DNA of 32,000 bases from Candidatus Electronema halotolerans (GCA_942493095.1 OW818675.1:3030001-3062000), one strand, 5' to 3'; positions 2,260 to 12,880 are shown, counted from the first letter of the stretch. Notes: a model not told the origin generated them from the letters alone. Numbers and translations: made by a program.

Positions 2260-4704
2260 ATGGGACAGGCGCACGATGAAAAACTGATTCTTTGGTTTGA
2301 TGAGATCGGCATTGAGGATGTGCCCCTTGTGGGCGGCAAAAATGCCTCGCTGGGCGAGATGTATCAGCATCTGACCGGCAAGGGCGTGGCTGTCCCGCAT
2401 GGTTTTGCGATCACTGCCTACGCCTACCGCTATCTGCTCAAAGAGGCGGGCGTTGAAGAGGAAATCAGGAAGGTGCTCTCTGATCTGGACACCGAGGACA
2501 TGGCCAACTTGGCCGAGCGCGGCGAGAAATGCCGGAACATCATCCGCAACGCCCCGTTTCCGCCCCTGCTGCGCGACGCGATCATTGAGGCCTACAAGAA
2601 GATGGAGGCTGAATATGGCGAGAACGTGGATGTGGCTGTCCGTTCCTCAGCCACGGCGGAAGACCTGCCTGATGCCTCGTTTGCCGGTCAGCAAGAGACC
2701 TATCTGAACATTCACGGCTACGAGAACATCATTCAGAACTGCCGCAAGTGCTTTGCCTCGCTGTTCACCAATCGGGCGATTTCTTACCGTCAGCATCAGG
2801 GCTATGGCCAGTTTGACGTTTATCTGTCAATCACCATTCAGAAGATGGTGCGCTCTGACTCGGCCTGCTCCGGCGTTATGTTCTCCATTGACACAGAGTC
2901 CGGCTTCAAGGATGCGGTCTTCATCACCGGTGCTTGGGGCTTGGGCGAGAACGTGGTGCAGGGCGCGGTCAACCCGGACGAGTATTACGTCTTCAAGCCG
3001 ACCCTGAAGCAGGGCAAGCGGCCTGTGGTCAGCAAGAAGGTCGGTTCCAAGGCGATCAAGATGATCTATGACAACGACCCTGCCAGCCCGGAGCCGGTCA
3101 GGAACATTGACACCACTGAGGCGGAGCGCAACGCCTATGTAATCAACGATGATGAGATTCTTCAGCTCGGCAGCTGGGCCTGCATCATCGAGGAGCATTA
3201 CAAGAAGGGCATGGACATCGAGTGGGCCAAGGACGGCGACGGCGTGAACGTCGGCACTGGCAAACTGTTCATTGTCCAAGCCCGGCCTGAGACCGTGCAT
3301 TCGCAGGCAAAAAAAGGCATGATCGAGACCTACAAGCTGCTGGAGCACGGCAAGGTGCTGACCGAGGGCTTGGCAGTCGGCAGCAAGATTGGCCAAGGCG
3401 TGGCCCACTGCATTGCGGATGCCAAAGATATTGGCACGTTCCGCAAGGGCGAAGTGTTGGTCACAGACATGACCGATCCTGACTGGGAGCCGATCATGAA
3501 GATTGCTGCCGCCATTGTCACCAACCGGGGCGGTCGCACCTGCCATGCCGCGATCATTTCCCGCGAGCTGGGCATTCCCTGCGTCATCGGCACCGGCGAC
3601 GGCTCGGAGCGGATCGTCACCGGGCAGGAAGTCACAGCCTGCTGCGCTGAGGGCGAGACTGGCTATGTTTATGAAGGTCTGCTCAAATATGAGGTGCAGA
3701 AAACCGATCTCAGCAGCATGCCGCCGACCAAGACCAAGATCATGATGAACTTGGCCATCCCGGAGAAAGCCTTCTCCGAATGCCAGATTCCCAACGACGG
3801 CGTTGGCTTGGCCCGCGAGGAGTTTGTCATCAACTCCCATATTGGCCTGCATCCGCTCGCGTTGTACAACTACGAGGAGCTGAAGGCATCGAGCGACCCG
3901 GAGAAGCAGGAGGTTGTCCGTCTGATTGATGCGAAGACTGGTGCATACACGGACAAGAAGCAGTTCTTTATCGACAAGGTGGCCGAAGGCGTGGGCCGGA
4001 TTGCTGCTGGTTTCTATCCGAAAGATGTCATTGTCCGCCTTTCTGACTTCAAGAGCAATGAGTACGCCAACCTTGCAGGCGGTCATTTCTACGAGCCGGA
4101 AGAGGAAAACCCGATGATCGGCTGGCGCGGCGCGTCCCGCTACTACGATCCCAAGTACCGGCCTGCCTTTGAGCTGGAGTGCCAAGGCCTGCTCAAGGCC
4201 CGTAATGACATGGGCCTGACCAATATCAAGCTGATGGTTCCTTTCTGCCGCACCCCGGAAGAGGGTAAAAAGGTCATTGAGGTCATGCGTGAATGCGGCT
4301 TAGTGCAGGGCGAGAACGGCTTGGAGCTGTACGTGATGTGCGAGATTCCGAGCAACGTCATCTGCGCGGATGCGTTCGCTGACATTTTTGATGGCTTCTC
4401 CATCGGCTCCAACGATTTGACTCAGCTCACTTACGGCCTTGACCGCGACTCCGGCATCCTGACCGGCATTGCGGACGAGCGCCATGAGGCGGTCAAAGAA
4501 ATGATCCGCATGGTGATCAAGACTGCCAAGCGGCGCGGGCGGAAGATCGGCATCTGCGGCCAAGGGCCGTCCGACTTCCCGGACTTTGCCACCTTCTTGG
4601 TTGAAGAGGGCATTGACTCCATGTCCCTGATCCCGGACACGGTCATCAAGACCCGTTTGGCTGTGCATGAGAAGGAAAAGGAGCTGGGCATCGCGCCGGA
4701 GTAA
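2260..4704 (+). CDS. ppsA: Phosphoenolpyruvate synthase (pyruvate, water dikinase)
   Basis: 814-aa ORF. ATP-grasp N-terminus (VPLVGGKNASLGEM), phospho-His swivel motif GGRTCHAAIISRELGIPCV and C-terminal PEP-utilising domain (GICGQGPSD). The last ~600 nt are repeated twice downstream. Confidence 0.95.
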   Translation: MGQAHDEKLILWFDEIGIEDVPLVGGKNASLGEMYQHLTGKGVAVPHGFAITAYAYRYLLKEAGVEEEIRKVLSDLDTEDMANLAERGEKCRNIIRNAPFPPLLRDAIIEAYKKMEAEYGENVDVAVRSSATAEDLPDASFAGQQETYLNIHGYENIIQNCRKCFASLFTNRAISYRQHQGYGQFDVYLSITIQKMVRSDSACSGVMFSIDTESGFKDAVFITGAWGLGENVVQGAVNPDEYYVFKPTLKQGKRPVVSKKVGSKAIKMIYDNDPASPEPVRNIDTTEAERNAYVINDDEILQLGSWACIIEEHYKKGMDIEWAKDGDGVNVGTGKLFIVQARPETVHSQAKKGMIETYKLLEHGKVLTEGLAVGSKIGQGVAHCIADAKDIGTFRKGEVLVTDMTDPDWEPIMKIAAAIVTNRGGRTCHAAIISRELGIPCVIGTGDGSERIVTGQEVTACCAEGETGYVYEGLLKYEVQKTDLSSMPPTKTKIMMNLAIPEKAFSECQIPNDGVGLAREEFVINSHIGLHPLALYNYEELKASSDPEKQEVVRLIDAKTGAYTDKKQFFIDKVAEGVGRIAAGFYPKDVIVRLSDFKSNEYANLAGGHFYEPEEENPMIGWRGASRYYDPKYRPAFELECQGLLKARNDMGLTNIKLMVPFCRTPEEGKKVIEVMRECGLVQGENGLELYVMCEIPSNVICADAFADIFDGFSIGSNDLTQLTYGLDRDSGILTGIADERHEAVKEMIRMVIKTAKRRGRKIGICGQGPSDFPDFATFLVEEGIDSMSLIPDTVIKTRLAVHEKEKELGIAPE

Positions 4705-4728
4705 ACGGCGGCGGTAGCGAAGGATGAG

Positions 4729-4764
4729 AAAGGGCGGGGTTGTATCTCGCCCTTTTCTGCTTTT
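4729..4764 (+). terminator. Rho-independent terminator after ppsA
   Basis: Stem aaagggcg / cgcccttt with an 11-nt loop, followed by a T-rich tail (ttttctgctttt). A related hairpin follows ppsA copy 3. Confidence 0.6.
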
Positions 4765-4819
4765 CGATGGAACAGAAGGAAATCAAGGTCATTTTTACGA
4801 AAATGCCAACAAAGGTATC

Positions 4820-6205
4820 ATGAAAATAAAAATTAGAAATCTTGGCGCGTTGAAGCAGGCAGAGTTCATGCTTGGAGAGATGACAATTATATGTGGCAGC
4901 AATAATACAGGAAAAACCTATGCCACCTATGCGCTTTATGGTTTTTTATCTACTTGGCATGAAGTGCTGTCTATTAATGTCGAATCAAAAAATGTAAGTG
5001 AATTGATGACTGATGGTGTGACACATATAGATATCAATAATTATATTAATAATGCTGAACATATATTGTCTGACGGGTGTGCAAGATATACAAATTTTTT
5101 GCCAACAATTTTTGCAGCTCCAAAGGACAGATTCAAAGAGAGCTCATTCGCTGTGACTGTTGCCGCAGATCATATAAAACCTTTTGGAAAATATGAGCGG
5201 CGCATGAAGGCAGCAAGCAAAGAACTGTTCTTTATTACAAAGGAGGAGACCAGCTCTGATGTGGTTGTCACTTTGCTTGTGGAGAAAGGCCGGGTTAGAC
5301 TGCCGCAAGACGTGATCAAAAAAGTTATTGGCAACGCACTGAAAGAAATTATTTTTGGGCAGTTGTTTCCAAACCCGTTCATTGCCAGCGCGGAGAGGAC
5401 AGGCGCGGCCATCTTTCGCAAGGAACTGAATTTTGCCCGCAATCGTCTTCTCGAAGAGATGACGAAAACAGATCAATCGGTCAATCCGGTTGATCTCCTT
5501 TTTAAAACATATCAAGATTATGCGCTTCCAGTGAAGGATAACGTTGACTTTACTCGACAAATTGAAACGTTAGCAAAAAAAAGCAGCTTTATTGATGAAC
5601 AACACCCGGATGTGATAATTAATTTTTCTGATATTATCGGCGGCGAATATCGAGTTACAAAGAATGATGAGCTGTATTATATACCAAAAGGTAAAAGAGT
5701 TAAACTAACGATGGATGAAAGCTCAAGTGCAGTACGTTCATTGCTGGATATCGGTTTTTATTTAAAACACATGGCGCGGCCTGGTGATCTGCTGATGGTA
5801 GATGAGCCAGAACTTAATTTGCACCCGGAAAATCAGCGGCGAGTGGCAAGGCTGTTCGCGAGATTAATCAATCTTGGCATTAAAGTTTTTATTACGACCC
5901 ACAGTGACTATATTATCAAAGAACTGAACACGCTGATCATGCTTAATCATGACAAGCAGCATCTAAAAAATATTGCTGACCGGGAAGGATATCGCAAAGA
6001 TGAACTTATTTCTTCCGATCAAGTCAGAGTTTATATTGCTGAAGAATCAATGGTAAAGCTAGATGGAGGGCAGCGTAAAACCCGCTGTCAAACATTAGTA
6101 CCTGCCGATATAGATCCTGAACTTGGCATTCAAGCACGTAGTTTCGATACAACTATTGAATCCATCAATAGAATTCAAGAAGAAATTGTCTGGGGAGAGG
6201 AGTGA
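4820..6205 (+). CDS. ABC/SMC-like P-loop ATPase (AAA_15/AAA_21-type), predicted defence-system ATPase
   Basis: Walker A GSNNTGKT (nt 4895-4918), signature-like SSSAVRSLL, Walker B/D-loop LLMVDEPELNLHPENQ (DEPE at 5801-5812) and H-loop FITTHSDY. A long insertion separates Walker A from the signature motif. I prefer the ATG at 4820 (MKIKIRNLG...) because the longer frame from 4724 runs through the ppsA terminator. Confidence 0.8.
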   Translation: MKIKIRNLGALKQAEFMLGEMTIICGSNNTGKTYATYALYGFLSTWHEVLSINVESKNVSELMTDGVTHIDINNYINNAEHILSDGCARYTNFLPTIFAAPKDRFKESSFAVTVAADHIKPFGKYERRMKAASKELFFITKEETSSDVVVTLLVEKGRVRLPQDVIKKVIGNALKEIIFGQLFPNPFIASAERTGAAIFRKELNFARNRLLEEMTKTDQSVNPVDLLFKTYQDYALPVKDNVDFTRQIETLAKKSSFIDEQHPDVIINFSDIIGGEYRVTKNDELYYIPKGKRVKLTMDESSSAVRSLLDIGFYLKHMARPGDLLMVDEPELNLHPENQRRVARLFARLINLGIKVFITTHSDYIIKELNTLIMLNHDKQHLKNIADREGYRKDELISSDQVRVYIAEESMVKLDGGQRKTRCQTLVPADIDPELGIQARSFDTTIESINRIQEEIVWGEE

Positions 6206-6208
6206 AGC

Positions 6209-6766
6209 ATGACAGATATTGAACTCCTTGGTCTGATGGTAAAAGATGAAATAAAAGTGTCTACCGAGGATAGAAATGGAAAGTTGTATGTCACATTAAG
6301 TGACCCACAATCTCCCAAAGGTTTAGTCACCATTGCAGGAGTGCCAGATAACGTCCTTGTCATCAAAGCAGATAACTTTGACTCGCCTGATTCATTTTTT
6401 ACTGGCTCAAGAGGAGAATGTAAACGGGCTGATTTCATTATCGCAGCAGAAACCGCACAGAAAAAAGTTATACTGTGCATTGAGATGAAATATAGGAAAG
6501 GCAAGCCAAATGAAATTGTTCAGCAGTTAAGAGGAACTCGCTGCCTTCTTTCTTATTGTCAGGAAATAGGTAAGGCCTTTTGGGACAAGCAAGATTTCCT
6601 TAAAGGGTATGTTTATCGTTTCGTCAGCATAGGCAATCTCAGCATAGCAAAGCAGAAAACCCGGATAGATCGTCAGTCAGCAATACATGACCGACCAGAA
6701 CGGATGATGAAAATTGATTGGCCAAATAGCCGAATCGAATTTAATAGGTTAGCTGGAAAAAGATGA
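6209..6766 (+). CDS. Small protein with PD-(D/E)xK nuclease-like motif (putative effector)
   Basis: 185-aa ORF starting 3 nt after the ATPase stop. Core pattern KRADFIIAAE...KKVILCIEMKYRKG...QQL gives D (6431-6433) on one hydrophobic strand and E-x-K (6482-6490) on the next, as in restriction-endonuclease-fold enzymes. This is a motif-level call only. Confidence 0.6.
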   Translation: MTDIELLGLMVKDEIKVSTEDRNGKLYVTLSDPQSPKGLVTIAGVPDNVLVIKADNFDSPDSFFTGSRGECKRADFIIAAETAQKKVILCIEMKYRKGKPNEIVQQLRGTRCLLSYCQEIGKAFWDKQDFLKGYVYRFVSIGNLSIAKQKTRIDRQSAIHDRPERMMKIDWPNSRIEFNRLAGKR

Positions 6767-6769
6767 TAT

Positions 6770-7123
6770 ATGAAAGCAAACATTGCGAATTCAATAACTA
6801 TCAACAGCAGCTACGCCGAACTGCTGCCTTCTTTTCATGATGACCTTCAGTCTGCAGTTGATGCCGCGCTGCAACGCTATCTGATTGATGAGATTGCCGC
6901 TAAGATTGCTGGCCTGAAGAAGAAAGAAAAGCTGTTCCGGCTCAAATACAGCTGCGATTACAAAACCTTTTCCCAGCGCATAGCTGAGGACGAGGAATAC
7001 ATCAATCAAATTGAGAGCAGTATCAGCAAACTCTGGGAGTCTGATTTAGCTGATTGGGAATTCTGCGAGAAAGGAATAAATGATTGGACGAAAAAGTTGC
7101 AGAATATTTTGCTGCTGTCGTAA
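6770..7123 (+). CDS. Hypothetical small acidic/helical protein (possible antitoxin-like partner)
   Basis: 117-aa ORF starting 3 nt after the previous stop. It overlaps the next ORF by 40 nt. No family was recognised. Confidence 0.55.
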   Translation: MKANIANSITINSSYAELLPSFHDDLQSAVDAALQRYLIDEIAAKIAGLKKKEKLFRLKYSCDYKTFSQRIAEDEEYINQIESSISKLWESDLADWEFCEKGINDWTKKLQNILLLS

Positions 7124-7479
7124 AAACAGCGGCAGACATCTTTGAGAACTGTGCGCATGAGACAGATTTTACACCGGAACGCGCTATCCTCCATCTTCAT
7201 GGGGAATACGATTCATGCAAGATTCTGATCACCGAGCTGTTCAGCGATAAGGTGCGCAAATACCGGTATTACGTTTTACAAGGAAGTCGGGTGGAGGCAG
7301 GCTTTGACAATGCCCCTGATCCACGGGCTATACGAATGAAATACGGCAAGATCGGCAAAGAACACGCTGGTGAGAATATTCCGCATCTTCATCTGGACGA
7401 CAAGACCAGCATGGTGCTGACTGAGGAGATGATGTTCTCTGATTTTGTTGAGTGGTTGCGGAAAAATCCTATCTTCTAA
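7084..7479 (+). CDS. DUF6516/TumE-like small protein (family assignment tentative)
   Basis: 131-aa ORF with a TTG start immediately after an in-frame TGA. aaagga lies about 10 nt upstream. KYRYY...GFDNAP...IPHLHL...FSDFVEWL resembles, from memory, the KYRYHW...WDNAPHH...PHHxH layout of DUF6516 proteins. Confidence 0.5.
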   Translation: MDEKVAEYFAAVVKTAADIFENCAHETDFTPERAILHLHGEYDSCKILITELFSDKVRKYRYYVLQGSRVEAGFDNAPDPRAIRMKYGKIGKEHAGENIPHLHLDDKTSMVLTEEMMFSDFVEWLRKNPIF

Positions 7480-7561
7480 CCAAACCATTTCTCTTTTCCA
7501 CTCCGGTCAAGAGGCGTTTTCCATTGGTCAGAAAATAGTTGCGGCCTTCTGCGGTAGGGTT

Positions 7562-8174
7562 TTACGAGCTTTCCGAACGAGGAAAACCCGATGATTGGCT
7601 GGCGGGCGCGGCGCGTCCCGCTACTACGATCCCAAGTACCGGCCTGCCTTTGAGCTGGAGTGCCAAGGCCTGCTCAAGGCCCGTAATGACATGGGCCTGA
7701 CCAATATCAAGCTGATGGTTCCTTTCTGCCGCACCCCGGAAGAGGGCAAAAAGGTCATTGAGGTGATGCGCGAATGCGGCTTGGTCCAGGGCGAGAACGG
7801 TTTGGAGCTGTACGTGATGTGCGAGATTCCGAGCAACGTCATCTGCGCGGATGCGTTCGCTGACATCTTTGATGGCTTCTCCATCGGCTCCAACGATTTG
7901 ACTCAGCTCACTTACGGCTTAGACCGCGACTCCGGCATCCTGACCGGCATTGCGGACGAGCGTCATGAGGCGGTCAAAGAAATGATCCGCATGGTGATCA
8001 AGACTGCCAAGCGGCGCGGGCGCAAGATCGGCATCTGCGGCCAGGGGCCGTCCGATTTCCCGGACTTCGCCACCTTCTTGGTTGAGGAGGGCATTGACTC
8101 CATGTCCCTGATCCCGGACACGGTCATCAAGACCCGTCTTGCAGTGCATGAGAAGGAGAAGGAGCTGGGCATTG
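7562..8174 (+). pseudogene. ppsA: Displaced ppsA 3'-end fragment (copy 2), truncated at its 3' end by IS66
   Basis: Aligns to ppsA nt ~4085-4692. The encoded 190 aa are identical to copy 1 despite about 20 nucleotide differences. Indels, including an extra ggcg near 7603, break the frame at the 5' junction. The last 4 codons are replaced by the IS end. Confidence 0.85.
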
Positions 8175-8192
8175 GTAACTGATCACAGGGTG
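8175..8192 (+). repeat. IS66 left terminal inverted repeat
   Basis: GTAACTGATCACAGGGTG matches the reverse complement of 9643-9660 at 15 of 18 positions. Confidence 0.7.
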
Positions 8193-8267
8193 TCTCTAAA
8201 AAACACTGGCGCTTGGCATCGCAACTGGATAAATTGTGAGCAGTAATTTTTTCCGCAGGAGAAAGCT

Positions 8268-9638
8268 GTGACCGCCCCGTTCCATTGTGAAAATTTTGAG
8301 ATAAGCGAGGAAGACCTTGCCGCTACACCTCCTGCGGTGCGGAAGCTGCTGTCTTTTTTGATCGCTGAGGTAACGCGGCTGAGAAAACGGGTCGAAGAGC
8401 TTGAGGCGAAACTCGGCGAAGATTCCTCGAACTCGAACAGGCCGCCTTCTTCCGACTCTCCGTTTACAGAAAAACGGCAGAGAGATCAGGCGGGGAAGCC
8501 CCGGAAAAAGCGGCGTGGATATCGTCAGGAGCTGATGCCGCCGACAGAAACGCAAAAAATGTATCCTTCCGCCTGCTCGTGCGGTTGCGGCAAATTCAAA
8601 AACATACGGTCATATTATACGCATCAGCATATTGAACTGCCGGAAATCGTGATGCAGGTCAGGCATTTCCTTCTTTATAAAGGGGAATGCGCCGCCTGCG
8701 GCAAAACCGTCAGAGGCTGTGTTCCCGATGAATTCAGAACCGGTTTCGGGGCGCGGTTCACCGCGCTGGTTGCCGAACTGAGCGGCATGGACGGCAGCAG
8801 CCGGGGAACTGTGCGGAAGTTCATCCGTTCCGTGCTCGGCGTTCCTATCAGCGCCGGGGCGGTGCAGAAGATCATTGACCGGGCTTCGGCGGCTGTCGCG
8901 CCGCACTATGAGGCCGTCCGGGCTGCCGTCACAAGCGGGGATGTCGGGCATATTGATGAAACGACGTGGAAAACTGGCGGCAGACTGCGCTGGTTATGGG
9001 TTATGGCGAACCGGCAGGCCGCGTTCTTCATGATTCATCCGAAACGCTCCAAGGAAGCGTTTGAAGAACTGATCGGCGCTTGGAACGGCATTCTCATCAG
9101 CGACGGATACAACGTGTACCAAAAATGGGTCGGCAAGCGGCAAACTTGCCTCGCGCACCTGATCCGCCGTGCCGACGGCCTTGCGGAACGCGCTGACCCT
9201 GAACTCGCCGCCTGCGGAAAATGGGCCGCTGCGGAACTGCGGCGGCTCTGCCGCATGGCGAAAGACCCGCCGACTGAAGGCGAACAGTCCGCATTTTATG
9301 CCCGGCTCTGCCGACTTATCCTACGCTGGCGCGATTGCGACAGTGATGCGGGGAGGTTTGTCCGTCATATTGACAAGGAAATGGAGGCGTTGTTCACTTT
9401 CTTGCTCGAAGAAGGCGTAGCGCCGACAAATAATCCAGCGGAACGGATGCTCCGCTTCGGCGTACTGTGGCGCAAACGGAGTCAGGGCACTGACAGCGAC
9501 AAGGGAAACCGCTGGGTTGAACGAATCCTTTCCCTCCGGCAGACATGCCTGCTTCGGGGAAAATCCACTTTCGAGGTGCTCACCGAGGCCATGCGCTGCT
9601 ATTTCAGAGGACAGATGCCGGATTTAAGCTGGGTCTGA
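8268..9638 (+). CDS. IS66-family transposase (TnpC-like)
   Basis: 456-aa ORF with a GTG start and aggaga RBS. N-terminal leucine-zipper region followed by SSNSNRPPSSD, a zinc-finger-like CSCGCGKF...CAACGK, and a DDE core. All are typical of IS66 transposases. Confidence 0.9.
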   Translation: MTAPFHCENFEISEEDLAATPPAVRKLLSFLIAEVTRLRKRVEELEAKLGEDSSNSNRPPSSDSPFTEKRQRDQAGKPRKKRRGYRQELMPPTETQKMYPSACSCGCGKFKNIRSYYTHQHIELPEIVMQVRHFLLYKGECAACGKTVRGCVPDEFRTGFGARFTALVAELSGMDGSSRGTVRKFIRSVLGVPISAGAVQKIIDRASAAVAPHYEAVRAAVTSGDVGHIDETTWKTGGRLRWLWVMANRQAAFFMIHPKRSKEAFEELIGAWNGILISDGYNVYQKWVGKRQTCLAHLIRRADGLAERADPELAACGKWAAAELRRLCRMAKDPPTEGEQSAFYARLCRLILRWRDCDSDAGRFVRHIDKEMEALFTFLLEEGVAPTNNPAERMLRFGVLWRKRSQGTDSDKGNRWVERILSLRQTCLLRGKSTFEVLTEAMRCYFRGQMPDLSWV

Positions 9639-9642
9639 GCGG

Positions 9643-9660
9643 TACCCTGTGATCGCTTAC
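9643..9660 (-). repeat. IS66 right terminal inverted repeat
   Basis: The reverse complement reads GTAAGCGATCACAGGGTA. Confidence 0.7.
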
Positions 9661-10053
9661 GAAAACGGCTTGGAGCTGTACGTGATGTGCGAGATTCCGA
9701 GCAACGTCATCTGCGCGGATGCGTTCGCTGACATCTTTGACGGCTTCTCCATCGGCTCCAACGATCTGACCCAGCTCACTTACGGCTTAGACCGCGACTC
9801 CGGCATCCTGACCGGCATTGCGGACGAGCGCCATGATGCGGTCAAAGAAATGATCCGCATGGTGATCAAGACTGCCAAGCGGCGCGGGCGCAAGATCGGC
9901 ATCTGCGGCCAGGGGCCGTCCGATTTCCCGGACTTTGCCACCTTCTTGGTTGAAGAGGGCATTGACTCCATGTCCCTGATCCCGGACACGGTCATCAAGA
10001 CCCGTCTTGCAGTGCATGAGAAGGAGAAGGAGCTGGGCATTGCGCCGAAGTAA
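9661..10053 (+). pseudogene. ppsA: Displaced ppsA 3'-end fragment (copy 3), 5'-truncated at the IS66 right end
   Basis: Aligns to ppsA nt ~4311-4704 and keeps its own stop codon and terminator. It differs from copies 1 and 2 by one internal residue (E to D in ERHDAVKEM). Its C-terminal ...GIAPK also differs from copy 1 (...GIAPE). Confidence 0.85.
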
Positions 10054-10084
10054 GGTGGCTGCAATAAGAGCTTGAAGCACGATG

Positions 10085-10120
10085 AAGGGCGGCCTGCGGG
10101 TTCGCCCTTTTTTGTTTTTT
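10085..10120 (+). terminator. Rho-independent terminator after ppsA copy 3
   Basis: Stem aagggcg / cgccctt followed by ttttttgtttttt. It is homologous in layout to the hairpin at 4729-4764. Confidence 0.65.
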
Positions 10121-10154
10121 CTCCGCTGCTTGACAGGATGCAAATGATCATGCT

Positions 10155-10568
10155 ATGCTGGAAACCGTTTCAAAATCTCGCTTCAAAGCAAAGGCACTTG
10201 AATATTTTCGCAAGATAGAGCAGAACGGGCAGGCTGTGATCATCATTGATCATGGGAAGCCCGTGCTGCAAGTGCTGCGTTTTGATGATCCTCTGGAGCC
10301 AGTTGGCATGTCTGGCTTTGTGGCGGCAGGAATCAGGAGTGAATATCTTTTTTTTCTTTGCAGCAGAAGAGTGTGTGCGAATGATTCCATCAGGGTGGCA
10401 GAGTGGCCTGCCGGGTGTTGTTCAGAAACGCTTATCCCAAGGCAACGGATGTGCAAGCCTCATGCGGCAGGCATATTCAGCGCGGATGCTGTTTTTGGCT
10501 TTTCTTGCATCTGGATTGGTGTTATAGTTAGGCAGCACTTATCCCAGCGGTCAGAAAAGGAGATATGA
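10155..10568 (+). pseudogene. Phd/YefM-type antitoxin N-terminus, probably degenerate and orphan
   Basis: The first ~50 aa (SKSRFKAKALEYFRKIEQNGQAVIIIDHGKPVLQVL) fit the Phd/YefM pattern. The remaining ~85 aa look like non-coding read-through. No toxin ORF follows. Confidence 0.35.
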
Positions 10569-10795
10569 ACGGCGAGGATAAGAATCGATTTGTGAATCAA
10601 CATCATCAGAGCGGCTGCCCTGACGATGTTCAGTGATGCAAGTCAATTGCCGCTGTGTGCATTCATATACGGCAAAAGTGCGACTCACCCCGATTAAGCG
10701 GCATCGGCAGGAAATTTTTTGGTTTTACAAAACGTTTTATCTGGCGGTATTATAACCGTCTTATATAGCAACTCAAAAAGGCAGAGGTAAGAAAG

Positions 10796-12880
10796 ATGAA
10801 AGGAAAAAAAAGTTATTCCCGCAGGCCGGTGTGCTTGCTCGCCCCGGCAGCACTTATTGCAGCGTTGGGCCTTGGCACAGCGTCGCACGCTTTCGCGGCG
10901 CAGGAGATTGATGTTCAGGGCGGAGCAGACAACACCTCCATTGCTGACGGCAGTGCCACGCCATCTGTTGATGATGGCACAGACTTCGGCGGCGTTGAGA
11001 CCAGCACTGATGCAGTCAAAACCTACACCATCCTCAATACTGGTGATGCAGACTTGACACTGAACGGCACGCCGCTTGTTAAGCTTAATCCAGTTGCGAC
11101 TGATGATAAAGGCTGCGACGCTTTCAGTGTTACCACCCAGCCGACAAGCCCGATTGCTGCGACTAAAAACACCACCTTCACGGTGACGTACAATCAAGCC
11201 GCATCCGGCAGCTTGGATAAATGCCAGATAAGCATCGCCAACGATGACGACAATGAAAATCCTTACGATTTTGTCATCCAAGGTTCAACTGTCCCAGAGA
11301 TGGATGTGCAAGGGAAGACCGTCTCGATCACTGACGGAGACACCACGCCATCTGCTGCTGATGACACTCTCTTTACCGCAGGCAGCGGGTCGGCCAAAAC
11401 CTACACCATCCTCAATACTGGTGGTGGAGACTTGACTCTGAGTGGCACTCCGCTTGTTGATCTTGTTGAGTTTGCAGATGGTGATGGAAGCTGTGACGAT
11501 TTCAGCGTCACCGCCCCGCCGACAAGCCCGATTGCTGCGGGCGGCAACACCACATTCGTTGTGACGTACACTCCGACTGGTGATGAAAATGGAACACCAT
11601 GCAAGGTCAGCATCGCAAATAATGATGCCGATGAGAATCCTTATGATTTTGCCATCCAAGTTGCGCTTCCTGAGATCGATGTTCAGGGAAACAGTGTCTC
11701 CATTGCTGACGGTCATGACACGCCATCTTCTGCTGATGACACCGACTTTGGCGGCGTTCCCACCAGCACTGATGTGACCAAAACCTACACCATCCTCAAC
11801 ATTGGCGGCGCAGACCTGACTTTGGACGGCACTGACTCGAATTATGTTGTGCTTGAACCGGTGGCGGATGGTGATGCAGGCTGCGGCGCGTTCACTGTCA
11901 CCCAGCCGACAGAAACAACGATTGCTGCGGGCGCAAGCACCACTTTCACGGTGACATACAATCAAGAGACAGTCAACACCGTGGATAAATGCGGGATCAG
12001 CATCGCCAATGACGATGCCGATGAGAATCCTTATGATTTCACCATCCAAGCCTCAACCGGCCCTGAAATGGATGTTCAGGGAAACAGCGTCTCCATTGCT
12101 GACGGCGACGATACGCCAGACATGGCTGATGACACCGACTTCGGCGGCGTTCCCACCAGCACTGATGTGACCAAAACCTACACCATTCTTAACATTGGCG
12201 GTGCAGAGCTGACCTTGGGTGTTGATCCTGTCACTAACGATGCTGCTGCTGGTTGCAATTTCTTCACCATCACCCAGCCGGCGGAAACAACACCGATTGC
12301 TGCGGGCGCAAGCACCACTTTCACGGTGACATACAAACAAGCGACAGCCAACACCTTGAATACATGCGGGATCAGCATCGCCAATAACGATGCCGATGAA
12401 GGTCCTTCTTATGATTTTGTCATCCAAGCCTCAACCGGCCCTGAGATGGATGTTCAGGGAAACAGCGTCTCCATTGCTGATGGCGATGACACCCCAGACG
12501 TGGCTGATGACACCGACTTCGGCACAGTTAACGTCGGTAAAACTCTGAGCAAAGCCTACACTATCCTAAACACTGGCGGTGCAAATTTGACCTTGGACGG
12601 CGATGCTCCGGATTATGTTGTGCTTAATGGTGAAGGTTGCGCCTCATTCAAAGTCACCACCCAGCCAACAACACCGATTGCTGTGGGCGCAACATCTGCT
12701 GTCACCTTCACAGTGGAATATGCCCCGACCGCTGTTTCGGAAGGAGAACAATGCACTGTCAGCATTGACAATAATGACAGCAATGAGAACCCTTATGATT
12801 TTGTCATCCAAGGGAAAGGCGGAAAGAGCGGCGCAAGTTACCTCCCGGCGGTCTATGAAGTACTGCTGAACGGAAACTAA
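10796..12880 (+). CDS. Secreted repeat protein with five tandem Ig-like (choice-of-anchor-D / ASH-like) domains
   Basis: Signal peptide ending AFA|AQE. Five units of ~125-131 aa each start (E/P)(I/M)DVQG. Each carries KTYTILNTGGxxLTL, two Cys, and ANxDxDENPYDFxIQ. Confidence 0.85.
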   Translation: MKGKKSYSRRPVCLLAPAALIAALGLGTASHAFAAQEIDVQGGADNTSIADGSATPSVDDGTDFGGVETSTDAVKTYTILNTGDADLTLNGTPLVKLNPVATDDKGCDAFSVTTQPTSPIAATKNTTFTVTYNQAASGSLDKCQISIANDDDNENPYDFVIQGSTVPEMDVQGKTVSITDGDTTPSAADDTLFTAGSGSAKTYTILNTGGGDLTLSGTPLVDLVEFADGDGSCDDFSVTAPPTSPIAAGGNTTFVVTYTPTGDENGTPCKVSIANNDADENPYDFAIQVALPEIDVQGNSVSIADGHDTPSSADDTDFGGVPTSTDVTKTYTILNIGGADLTLDGTDSNYVVLEPVADGDAGCGAFTVTQPTETTIAAGASTTFTVTYNQETVNTVDKCGISIANDDADENPYDFTIQASTGPEMDVQGNSVSIADGDDTPDMADDTDFGGVPTSTDVTKTYTILNIGGAELTLGVDPVTNDAAAGCNFFTITQPAETTPIAAGASTTFTVTYKQATANTLNTCGISIANNDADEGPSYDFVIQASTGPEMDVQGNSVSIADGDDTPDVADDTDFGTVNVGKTLSKAYTILNTGGANLTLDGDAPDYVVLNGEGCASFKVTTQPTTPIAVGATSAVTFTVEYAPTAVSEGEQCTVSIDNNDSNENPYDFVIQGKGGKSGASYLPAVYEVLLNGN
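10904..12813 (+). repeat. Five tandem coding repeats of ~375-393 nt
   Basis: Unit starts are at 10904, 11297, 11672, 12065 and 12443. The first ~100 nt of units 4 and 5 are about 90% identical by eye. Confidence 0.8.

Follow-up and report, generated by a model that had tools for sequence, protein, structure and literature searches.

A candidate defence pair and a putative toxin-antitoxin pair lie side by side 3' of ppsA in Candidatus Electronema halotolerans

In a 32,000-nucleotide stretch of Candidatus Electronema halotolerans DNA (the window, from whose first letter all positions are counted), four tightly packed and co-oriented genes occupy a low-GC block (~4766-7570) that lies 3' of ppsA. 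We conclude, with a probability of roughly 0.85, that the block consists of two modules of two genes, each gained by horizontal transfer and independent of the other, which have come to lie side by side at a variable site. Genes 1 and 2 correspond to PDC-M47, a candidate phage defence unit composed of an ATPase and a predicted nuclease, and genes 3 and 4 form a putative toxin-antitoxin pair resembling TumE-TumA. The features of the locus are as follows.

2260..4704, + strand: ppsA (PEP synthase), intact, an 814-aa ORF whose last ~600 nt are copy 1 of a triplicated segment
4728..4765, + strand: intrinsic-terminator-like hairpin of ppsA (hairpin at 4728-4756, a 13-pair stem with 6 G-C pairs, then a T-run)
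4820..6205, + strand: gene 1, OLD-type ABC ATPase, 461 aa, PDC-M47A (by PADLOC, Pfam and motif conservation)
6209..6766, + strand: gene 2, PD-(D/E)xK-type protein, 185 aa, PDC-M47B (by PADLOC and invariant residues)
6770..7123, + strand: gene 3, 117 aa, no known domain, in the antitoxin (TumA) position upstream of gene 4
7084..7479, + strand: gene 4, divergent TumE/DUF6516-like protein, 131 aa, TTG start, predicted toxin
7573..8182, + strand: ppsA 3' fragment, copy 2, which has 95% identity to 4096-4704 and a 4-nt insertion
8175..9660, + strand: IS66-family insertion sequence, transposase at 8268-9638 (Pfam DDE_Tnp_IS66, 2.5e-34; DUF6444)
9660..10053, + strand: ppsA 3' fragment, copy 3, 95-96.5% identical to copies 1 and 2

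The GC content drops from 0.55-0.60 in ppsA to 0.36-0.46 over ~4800-7400 and rises again to 0.54-0.58 past 7500. The genes are separated by 3 nt (genes 1 and 2) and 3 nt (genes 2 and 3), and genes 3 and 4 overlap by 40 nt, so that our ORF and GC scan agrees with the first-pass annotation of this DNA, which had described a segment poorer in GC than its flanks with four co-oriented ORFs at these spacings. On its left side, the low-GC cassette is bounded by the ppsA hairpin. Because the longest ORF of gene 1 starts at 4724, inside this hairpin, and both PADLOC ATPase models align from its residue 33, we assigned the true start to the ATG at 4820, which gives the 461-aa protein. A single promoter-like site, a weak one (9/12 match), was located upstream of gene 1, and no convincing promoter or terminator was found in the sequence between genes 1 and 4; from the spacing, the four genes may share one transcript. 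The window contains no tRNA gene as an integration target. The genes that flank the block are housekeeping genes (NifS, NifU, DapA, DsbA-like, PhoH, YbeY/PdxJ and GGDEF), and we therefore rejected a large, classical defence island and regard the locus as a small hotspot.

Gene 1 matches the PADLOC model PDC-M47A along its entire length (E=1.2e-238, 790.6 bits, profile 1-461 of 461) and scores lower with PD-T4-4_A (E=1.3e-163, profile 1-457 of 460). It was proposed earlier to be of the AAA_15/AAA_21 type, in agreement with its Pfam matches (AAA_15, 8.6e-29; AAA_21, 1.3e-17) and with our assignment as an OLD-type ABC ATPase. The complete set of ABC/SMC-type ATPase motifs reported at first pass can also be read in the sequence: Walker A CGSNNTGKT, signature SSSAVRSLL, Walker B VDEPE and H-loop TTHSDY (positions 25-33, 301-309, 327-330 and 359-362 of the 461-aa protein). 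Long inserts separate Walker A from the signature, and each of the four motifs is at least 95% conserved in 72 homologues. A sequence search of the PDB returned generic ABC ATPase matches only (UvrA, OLD, PtuA). We predict that gene 1 encodes the sensor or regulator of the pair.

Gene 2 is matched nearly end to end by PDC-M47B (E=1.3e-73, 244.6 bits, profile 1-184 of 186), while its match to PD-T4-4_B is weak and partial (E=2.5e-4, 18.7 bits, residues 68-151). The D...ExK core that had been noticed in this protein is borne out by conservation, as D75...E92-x-K94 is invariant in 37 homologues, and so are E70, K72 and Q106. When the AF2 model of gene 2 (pLDDT 83.8) was compared with the PDB by Foldseek, there was no match at E<=1e-3; the top matches were nearly all restriction-fold nucleases (FokI, Mus81, EndoMS, PaqCI, MspJI, BamHI and HamA), none of them significant, with the best at E=0.02 and TM ~0.3. 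Searching PDB sequences with the gene 2 profile gave nothing significant. Gene 2 is the predicted nuclease effector.

For the co-occurrence analysis we used 80 related loci on one-genome-per-species contigs from many phyla. Wherever the contig reaches, a homologue of gene 1 (49-90% identity) lies directly upstream of gene 2, and the distance from the gene 1 stop to the gene 2 start is mostly -1 nt among the homologous loci. Clustering of the neighbouring ORFs of the 80 loci revealed no recurrent third component near the pair (largest cluster, 10/80). The distribution of PDC-M47 is patchy across cyanobacteria, Desulfobacterota, Proteobacteria and other phyla and, taken with the low GC content, would fit mobile defence cargo. 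At the level of sequence, genes 1 and 2 are PDC-M47, a strict and widespread two-gene candidate defence unit. The earlier statement that no named system applies does not hold, since PADLOC lists this pair as PDC-M47, whereas the association of an ATPase-nuclease pair with defence is upheld by the PADLOC matches to PDC-M47 and PD-T4-4 and by published relatives.

PDC-M47 is multi-gene system no. 47 among the "phage defence candidates" of PADLOC-DB v2, which were defined through their embedding in defence loci (Payne et al., bioRxiv 10.1101/2024.01.29.577857). We noticed that one homologous gene 1-2 pair sits between an N6_N4 methyltransferase gene and a ResIII helicase/nuclease gene, which is the same kind of embedding. 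A full-text literature search for PDC-M47 found no paper and no published phage test. The products of genes 1 and 2 align with the A and B models over their whole length, and the two genes are direct neighbours on one strand, with A preceding B; no difference from PDC-M47 was detected in sequence, and genes 3 and 4 are not part of this two-gene candidate.

The comparisons with PD-T4-4 identify PDC-M47 as its sister clade. PD-T4-4 has been validated by experiment, having emerged from a functional selection against phage (Vassallo et al. 2022, PMC9519451), and was published as a PD-(D/E)xK protein and a P-loop NTPase that form higher-order complexes. In both systems a ~460-aa ABC ATPase is followed by a ~190-aa PD-(D/E)xK-type protein, the ATPases are homologous over their full length, and both are carried on mobile DNA. 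However, gene 1 has ~31% identity to true PD-T4-4_A proteins, and true PD-T4-4_B proteins score 63-147 bits with the model to which gene 2 gave 18.7 bits, implying that gene 2 is a distant homologue and not a member. True PD-T4-4 pairs carried by a Vibrio P2-like phage and by a 4.8-kb Col plasmid of E. coli cross-match PDC-M47B weakly, and their partner proteins align with the gene 2 profile in hhalign at E=6.5e-4 and 8.2e-5.

WonAB, which has been described as similar to PD-T4-4, protects against phage in experiments; it acts via abortive infection, and its function depends on the presence of both genes as well as on the ATPase motifs and on the lysine of the nuclease (Adams et al. 2025, PMC12137116). 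The same study describes "OLD-ABC ATPase + novel REase" operons that vary in their inserts and C-terminal extension and in some cases in the nuclease. By published description, WonAB has the design predicted for genes 1 and 2, in which a small variant PD-(D/E)xK protein accompanies an OLD-type ABC ATPase that carries long inserts and is extended at its C terminus. By analogy with WonAB, the gene 1 ATPase would dimerise via its ATP sites, its C-terminal region would hold or stabilise the small nuclease, and on sensing an infection cue it would license this nuclease, with abortive-infection-type protection as the possible outcome. Septu (PtuAB), Gabija, PARIS and OLD share the OLD/AAA_15-type ABC ATPase module, as seen in weak partial PADLOC matches (E=1e-9 to 1e-30) that score far under those to PDC-M47 and PD-T4-4, but their effectors are of the HNH, Toprim or DUF4435 type, partnered or fused, whereas the effector here would be a separate PD-(D/E)xK protein. 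Pfam and PADLOC searches found no HNH, Toprim or DUF4435 domain in genes 1-4.

The PDC-M47 pair changes little as the discovery of a defence system, being in PADLOC already, with PD-T4-4 and WonAB published. As a strict two-gene unit with invariant ATPase motifs and D/E/K residues, it is a well-defined target for a first experiment. Cable bacteria are not known to grow in pure culture, and their phages are little known; the genes described here give this group specific candidates for immunity, located at a variable site.

We then consider genes 3 and 4. Gene 3 has no match in Pfam, NCBIfam, PHROGs or PADLOC and no antitoxin or DNA-binding domain recognisable in these searches, and its homologues lie immediately 5' of gene 4 homologues in six other loci. 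For gene 4, the same four databases gave nothing beyond a sub-threshold match to Pfam TumE (PF20126; E=0.11, 13 bits, with a gathering cut-off of 23.4). Its relatives do match TumE, 18/37 of the close and 20/37 of the divergent ones (E<=0.01 for the latter), the best at E=2.9e-7, implying that gene 4 is a divergent relative within the superfamily and not a member as Pfam defines it. The AF2 model of gene 4 (pLDDT 84.2) contains a helix at 3-19, seven strands between 21 and 113, a helix at 118-127 and one additional short helix. This order of secondary structure, compared by description, agrees with the alpha+beta fold published for TumE, in which two helices pack against an antiparallel sheet of seven strands and which has no confident PDB match (Durairaj et al. 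2023, PMC10584680). Foldseek found no PDB match to the gene 4 model at E<=1e-3, and a weak topology match to p32/gC1qR-like proteins (E=0.04) was taken as non-informative; profiles of genes 3 and 4 gave nothing significant against PDB sequences.

The resemblance of gene 4 to DUF6516/TumE suggested at first pass is therefore real with respect to its relatives and its fold, although the score of gene 4 itself stays below the threshold, and the proposal of an antitoxin/toxin-like pair is strengthened by the same two lines of evidence. As in TumE-TumA, the arrangement is bicistronic with the DUF6516-like gene 3' of a small unrelated partner; it differs in the sub-threshold score of gene 4 and in a partner family without a recognised DNA-binding or antitoxin domain. 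From this analogy we infer that genes 3 and 4 are a TumE-TumA-like type II toxin-antitoxin pair, in which gene 4 would inhibit translation and gene 3 would neutralise it. The TTG start and a gene 3/4 overlap of 37-40 nt are conserved in seven loci, and the Shine-Dalgarno-like AAGG of gene 4, itself a conserved motif, falls within the conserved Lys-Gly codons of gene 3. The weak TTG and the AAGG inside gene 3 may keep the toxin output under the antitoxin output. The analysis defines a compact, highly conserved TumE-like subfamily with its own partner family, most of which the Pfam TumE model misses.

The two pairs are found together rarely. Genes 3 and 4 accompany genes 1 and 2 in 3/80 related loci, all of them in Candidatus Electronema, and neither gene 3 nor gene 4 was seen in 76/80 other gene 1-2 loci (DNA 3' of gene 2, as far as the contig extends and to 8 kb at most). 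The gene 3-4 pair in turn occurs between unrelated genes and without genes 1 and 2 in at least four to five other genomes. Stand-alone pairs of this kind, with upstream partners homologous to gene 3, are present in Desulfonema, a Desulfobacterales MAG, Chloroflexota, Desulfamplus and Magnetomoraceae; these hosts include a magnetotactic Desulfobacterota lineage related to Desulfobacterales. The same locus is split among the cable bacteria: in Ca. E. aureum, ppsA is followed by an unrelated ORF and then by gene 3 and a truncated gene 4, genes 1 and 2 being absent, and Electrothrix has ppsA and genes 1 and 2 without genes 3 and 4. The unrelated ORF of Ca. E. aureum encodes 185 aa, the same length as gene 2, and was considered as a diverged gene 2 and rejected (BLASTP E=0.42). 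The first-pass annotation had read the four genes as possibly a single new system and had made this novelty depend on the absence of confident named-system profile matches and on co-localisation of the four genes; confident matches and genes that do not co-localise were both found, which tells against the novelty.

The ppsA gene aligns over its whole length with ppsA of other cable bacteria (86% nucleotide identity to Ca. E. aureum), in which the product contains PPDK_N, PEP-utilizers and PEP-utilizers_C domains. Copy 2 of its 3' end, frameshifted close to the 5' end and with a residual ORF that matches Pfam PEP-utilizers_C, forms the right boundary of the cassette. The IS66-family element, with terminal inverted repeats at 8172-8191 and 9644-9663, adjoins the end of copy 2 and the start of copy 3; the zf-IS66 match in its transposase is under the gathering score. 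Copy 3 runs on into the native downstream flank, and together with the sequence beyond it corresponds to the region directly 3' of ppsA in Electronema sp. KV. The locus is composite and its position variable, with repeated pieces of the ppsA 3' end on either side, and E. nielsenii has at the same spot also a STAND-like NTPase and an MNT/HEPN pair. The second and third ppsA copies and the IS66-family element had been overlooked before.

Two extensions of the two-module reading can be proposed, and we consider them, taken jointly, speculative and unlikely. The ppsA 3' end might act in cable bacteria as a recombinase-free capture site, where defence and toxin-antitoxin cassettes would each bring their own ppsA 3' copy and be stacked via homologous (Campbell-type) recombination. 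In Electronema, the TumE-like pair might have been captured into the PDC-M47 transcription unit, where it would work with PDC-M47 as a second abortive effector or as a cassette-locking addiction module.

A secondary coupling, confined to Electronema, is in our view improbable. Here a promoterless toxin-antitoxin pair would be transcribed from the promoter of the defence pair. It would either stabilise the cassette in the manner of an addiction module or provide a second line of abortive defence, with the effector set free once infection causes transcription or translation to collapse. The gap between the two pairs is 3-9 nt in four Electronema genomes, and the homology with E. aureum begins exactly at the ATG of gene 3, implying that the former upstream promoter region, if any, was replaced by gene 2. 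In this setting genes 3 and 4 thus probably lack their own promoter, and a functional coupling could have been acquired. However, neutral stacking of cassettes at a hotspot explains the juxtaposition equally well, the same spot in E. nielsenii gathered the additional genes mentioned above, and gene 2 may itself contain a promoter.

The two-module reading also has to be weighed against a true four-gene defence system, co-evolved and co-transcribed, with an ATPase sensor, PD-(D/E)xK and TumE-like effectors and gene 3 as regulator. The tight spacing without a detected internal promoter or terminator would agree with such a system, and so would the four-gene order, which E. nielsenii and Electronema sp. 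KV share, with 3/4 genes in sp. PJ. However, the order-keeping loci are all close relatives sharing one ancestral locus and count as approximately one event, and considering the separate occurrence of each pair, including the split in E. aureum and Electrothrix, we find this system very hard to sustain. That genes 1 and 2 are not a defence unit at all but an ATPase-nuclease pair with a housekeeping role, or with one in maintaining a mobile element such as a plasmid or prophage, could draw on the candidate status of PDC-M47, on relatives carried by small Col plasmids and by a temperate phage and on the housekeeping neighbours in the window, but is highly improbable given that PD-T4-4, the closest characterised relative, came from an anti-phage selection, that WonAB is protective, that homologues are embedded in restriction-modification loci, and that the patchy distribution and low GC content favour mobile defence cargo.

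The low-GC block behind ppsA was confirmed as the first-pass annotation had described it: the GC content falls from ~0.57 before the ppsA terminator-like hairpin to 0.36-0.46 behind it, as far as ~7500, the four co-oriented ORFs lie at the coordinates and spacings listed here, and every quoted sequence motif was found.

2260-4704: ppsA, ending with a strong terminator-like hairpin
4728-4756: the ppsA terminator-like hairpin, followed by a T-run
4820-6205: gene 1, OLD-type ABC ATPase, co-oriented with genes 2-4
6209-6766: gene 2, PD-(D/E)xK-type protein, 3 nt from gene 1
6770-7123: gene 3, in the antitoxin position, 3 nt from gene 2
7084-7479: gene 4, TumE-like, TTG start, 40-nt overlap with gene 3

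The true start of gene 1 is the ATG at 4820, because the longest ORF opens within the ppsA terminator, at 4724, and aligns with the two PADLOC ATPase models (PDC-M47A and PD-T4-4_A) from residue 33 onwards. Gene 3 is identical (100%) to the protein GCAAIG_13655 of Candidatus Electronema halotolerans, the cable bacterium to which the window belongs. The proposal that the four genes form a single system did not hold, as gene 3 and/or gene 4 occurs in 3 of 80 loci of genes 1-2 and the two stand alone elsewhere. The 'four-gene operon' consists of two modules placed side by side in one lineage: a PDC-M47 system, which is a candidate defence pair of PADLOC, and a divergent TumE-TumA-like toxin-antitoxin pair. 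Both modules belong to known kinds, and the novelty is low.

The four-gene set had been thought to match no named system, but gene 1 matches PADLOC PDC-M47A end-to-end (E=1.2e-238) and gene 2 matches PDC-M47B (E=1.3e-73). The assignment of gene 1 to the AAA_15 and AAA_21 families agrees with Pfam. The PDC systems are predicted 'phage defence candidates', recognized by their embedding in BREX, DISARM or type I restriction-modification loci (bioRxiv 10.1101/2024.01.29.577857). PD-T4-4_A is a further match for gene 1 (E=1.3e-163), whereas gene 2 matches PD-T4-4_B only weakly (E=2.5e-4). PD-T4-4 was obtained in E. coli by functional selection for anti-phage activity (PMC9519451) and is reported to consist of a PD-(D/E)xK nuclease and a P-loop NTPase that form higher-order complexes (bioRxiv 10.1101/2025.07.10.664194). 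True PD-T4-4 pairs are carried by a 4.8-kb Col plasmid of E. coli and by a Vibrio P2-like phage, in which a CI repressor and an integrase flank the pair; the B proteins of both cross-match PDC-M47B weakly. PDC-M47 is therefore sister to PD-T4-4: the ATPases of the two are clearly homologous, the nucleases distantly so. PD-T4-4 was called similar to WonAB of Vibrio cholerae by the WonAB authors; WonAB pairs an OLD-type ABC ATPase with a variant PD-(D/E)xK protein, depends on both genes as well as on the lysine of the nuclease and the motifs of the ATPase, and acts by lysis-independent abortive infection once phage DNA replication is under way (PMC12137116). By analogy with these relatives, the gene 1 ATPase would control the PD-(D/E)xK nuclease of gene 2 and cause abortive infection.

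A gene-2 profile built from 37 homologues, in which E70, K72, D75, E92, K94 and Q106 are invariant, was used to scan one genome per species. The scan returned 80 loci from cyanobacteria, Desulfobacterota, Gamma- and Betaproteobacteria, Riflebacteria, Aminicenantes, Verrucomicrobia and Chloroflexota. Wherever the upstream DNA suffices, gene 2 is directly preceded by a homologue of gene 1 (49-90% identity), in most loci with -1 nt between the gene-1 stop and the gene-2 start, and the Walker A, signature, Walker B and H-loop motifs show at least 95% conservation among 72 ATPases. Clustering of the neighbouring ORFs gave no recurrent third gene, the biggest cluster covering 10 of the 80 loci. Genes 1-2 are thus a strict pair for which a third gene is unnecessary. 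A ~104-aa ORF lies 5' of gene 1 in 10 of the 80 loci. In a Gammaproteobacteria MAG (3981-11242 of the locus), an N6_N4 methyltransferase and a DUF4325 protein flank the pair on one side and a ResIII protein of 895 aa on the other; the whole resembles a type III-like restriction-modification locus and fits the embedding signal of the PDC systems.

AF2 gave a confident model of gene 2 (pLDDT 83.8). Its best PDB matches are nearly all restriction-fold nucleases (FokI, Mus81, EndoMS, PaqCI, MspJI, BamHI, HamA, AddAB), none of them significant (best E=0.02), and the nuclease fold therefore rests on the invariant motif and the literature on the relatives, by which it is supported, not proven.

Among the 80 loci, homologues of gene 3 and/or gene 4 were found in Electronema only (sp. 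PJ, E. nielsenii and sp. KV). Gene 4 has >340 close homologues of 129-133 aa, mainly in Desulfobacterales and Chloroflexota. In five other genomes (a Desulfobacterales MAG, Desulfonema limicola, a Chloroflexota contig, Desulfamplus and a Magnetomoraceae genome), a 110-117-aa gene-3 homologue lies 5' of a gene-4 homologue amid unrelated genes, with no genes 1-2 near the pair. The TTG start of gene 4, its 37-40-nt overlap with gene 3 and an AAGG-type Shine-Dalgarno-like motif within invariant Lys-Gly codons of gene 3 (7060-7090 in the window) recur in all seven loci examined, the window and six others, and the TTG start and AAGG motif are kept in Desulfobacterota and Chloroflexota alike. The arrangement looks like a built-in means of keeping toxin translation low and coupled to that of the partner.

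The resemblance of gene 4 to DUF6516/TumE was upheld through its relatives and its model. Gene 4 itself falls under the threshold against Pfam TumE (E=0.11); at E<=1, PF20126 is matched by 18 of its 37 close relatives (best E=1e-4), and at E<=0.01 by 20 of 37 divergent ones (best E=2.9e-7). In the AF2 model (pLDDT 84.2), seven consecutive strands lie between an N-terminal and a C-terminal helix, and the model has no confident match in the PDB; this agrees with the published TumE fold, a seven-stranded antiparallel sheet with two helices packed on it that likewise has no PDB match (PMC10584680). TumE toxins are translation inhibitors encoded 3' of diverse small partners (PMC10584680). No domain was detected in gene 3. 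From these relatives, gene 4 may be a translation-targeting toxin neutralized by its upstream partner.

The gene order behind ppsA varies among other cable bacteria.

Ca. E. aureum (7275-9343 of the locus): an unrelated secreted-looking ORF, gene 3, the first ~100 nt of gene 4, an IS1-like element
Electrothrix: only genes 1-2
E. nielsenii: a 620-aa P-loop NTPase and an MNT/HEPN pair, a second ppsA 3' piece, genes 1-4

In Ca. E. aureum, genes 1-2 are absent from the ppsA locus, and the unrelated ORF behind ppsA has 185-210 aa and a hydrophobic N-terminus. The gene-3 homologue is intact (92% aa identity) and gene 4 is cut off before the IS1-like element, leaving an orphan antitoxin-position gene and a destroyed toxin-position gene. 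The NTPase of E. nielsenii F5 (cargo at 3206-5731 of the locus) carries GPAGSGKT...DGFDE and is STAND/NACHT-like by eye. The ppsA-downstream site is a variable spot and, given the NTPase and MNT/HEPN-like pair of E. nielsenii, the cargo stacked there differs by species. Co-transcription of genes 1-4 in Electronema is plausible and the E. aureum homology begins exactly at the ATG of gene 3; we therefore allow a small chance that the two modules have acquired some coupling.

The last 400-600 nt of ppsA are present three times in direct orientation, with the four-gene cassette and an IS element lying between the copies.

4096-4704: ppsA copy 1
7573-8182: ppsA copy 2, frameshifted
8175-9660: IS66-family element with a lone transposase ORF (8268-9638)
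9660-10053: ppsA copy 3, running on into the native downstream flank

The copies are mutually 95-96.5% identical and 88-90% identical to other Electronema species, and the short-read contigs of the cassette end at these repeats. No integrase is present. Campbell-type integration through homologous recombination would leave such a pattern if circular cassettes each had a ppsA 3' fragment. The IS66-family element has terminal inverted repeats of the GTAA(C/G)...ATCACAGGGT type; its left end takes the place of the last three codons of copy 2 and its right end adjoins an internal position of copy 3, so that it is not a simple insertion with target-site duplication. On the 3' side of copy 3, the GC content is still somewhat low (0.46-0.52); a 137-aa ORF (10155-10568) has no domain match, and a 694-aa protein (10796-12880) contains repeated Ig-like/DUF1573 (HYDIN/ASH-type) domains.
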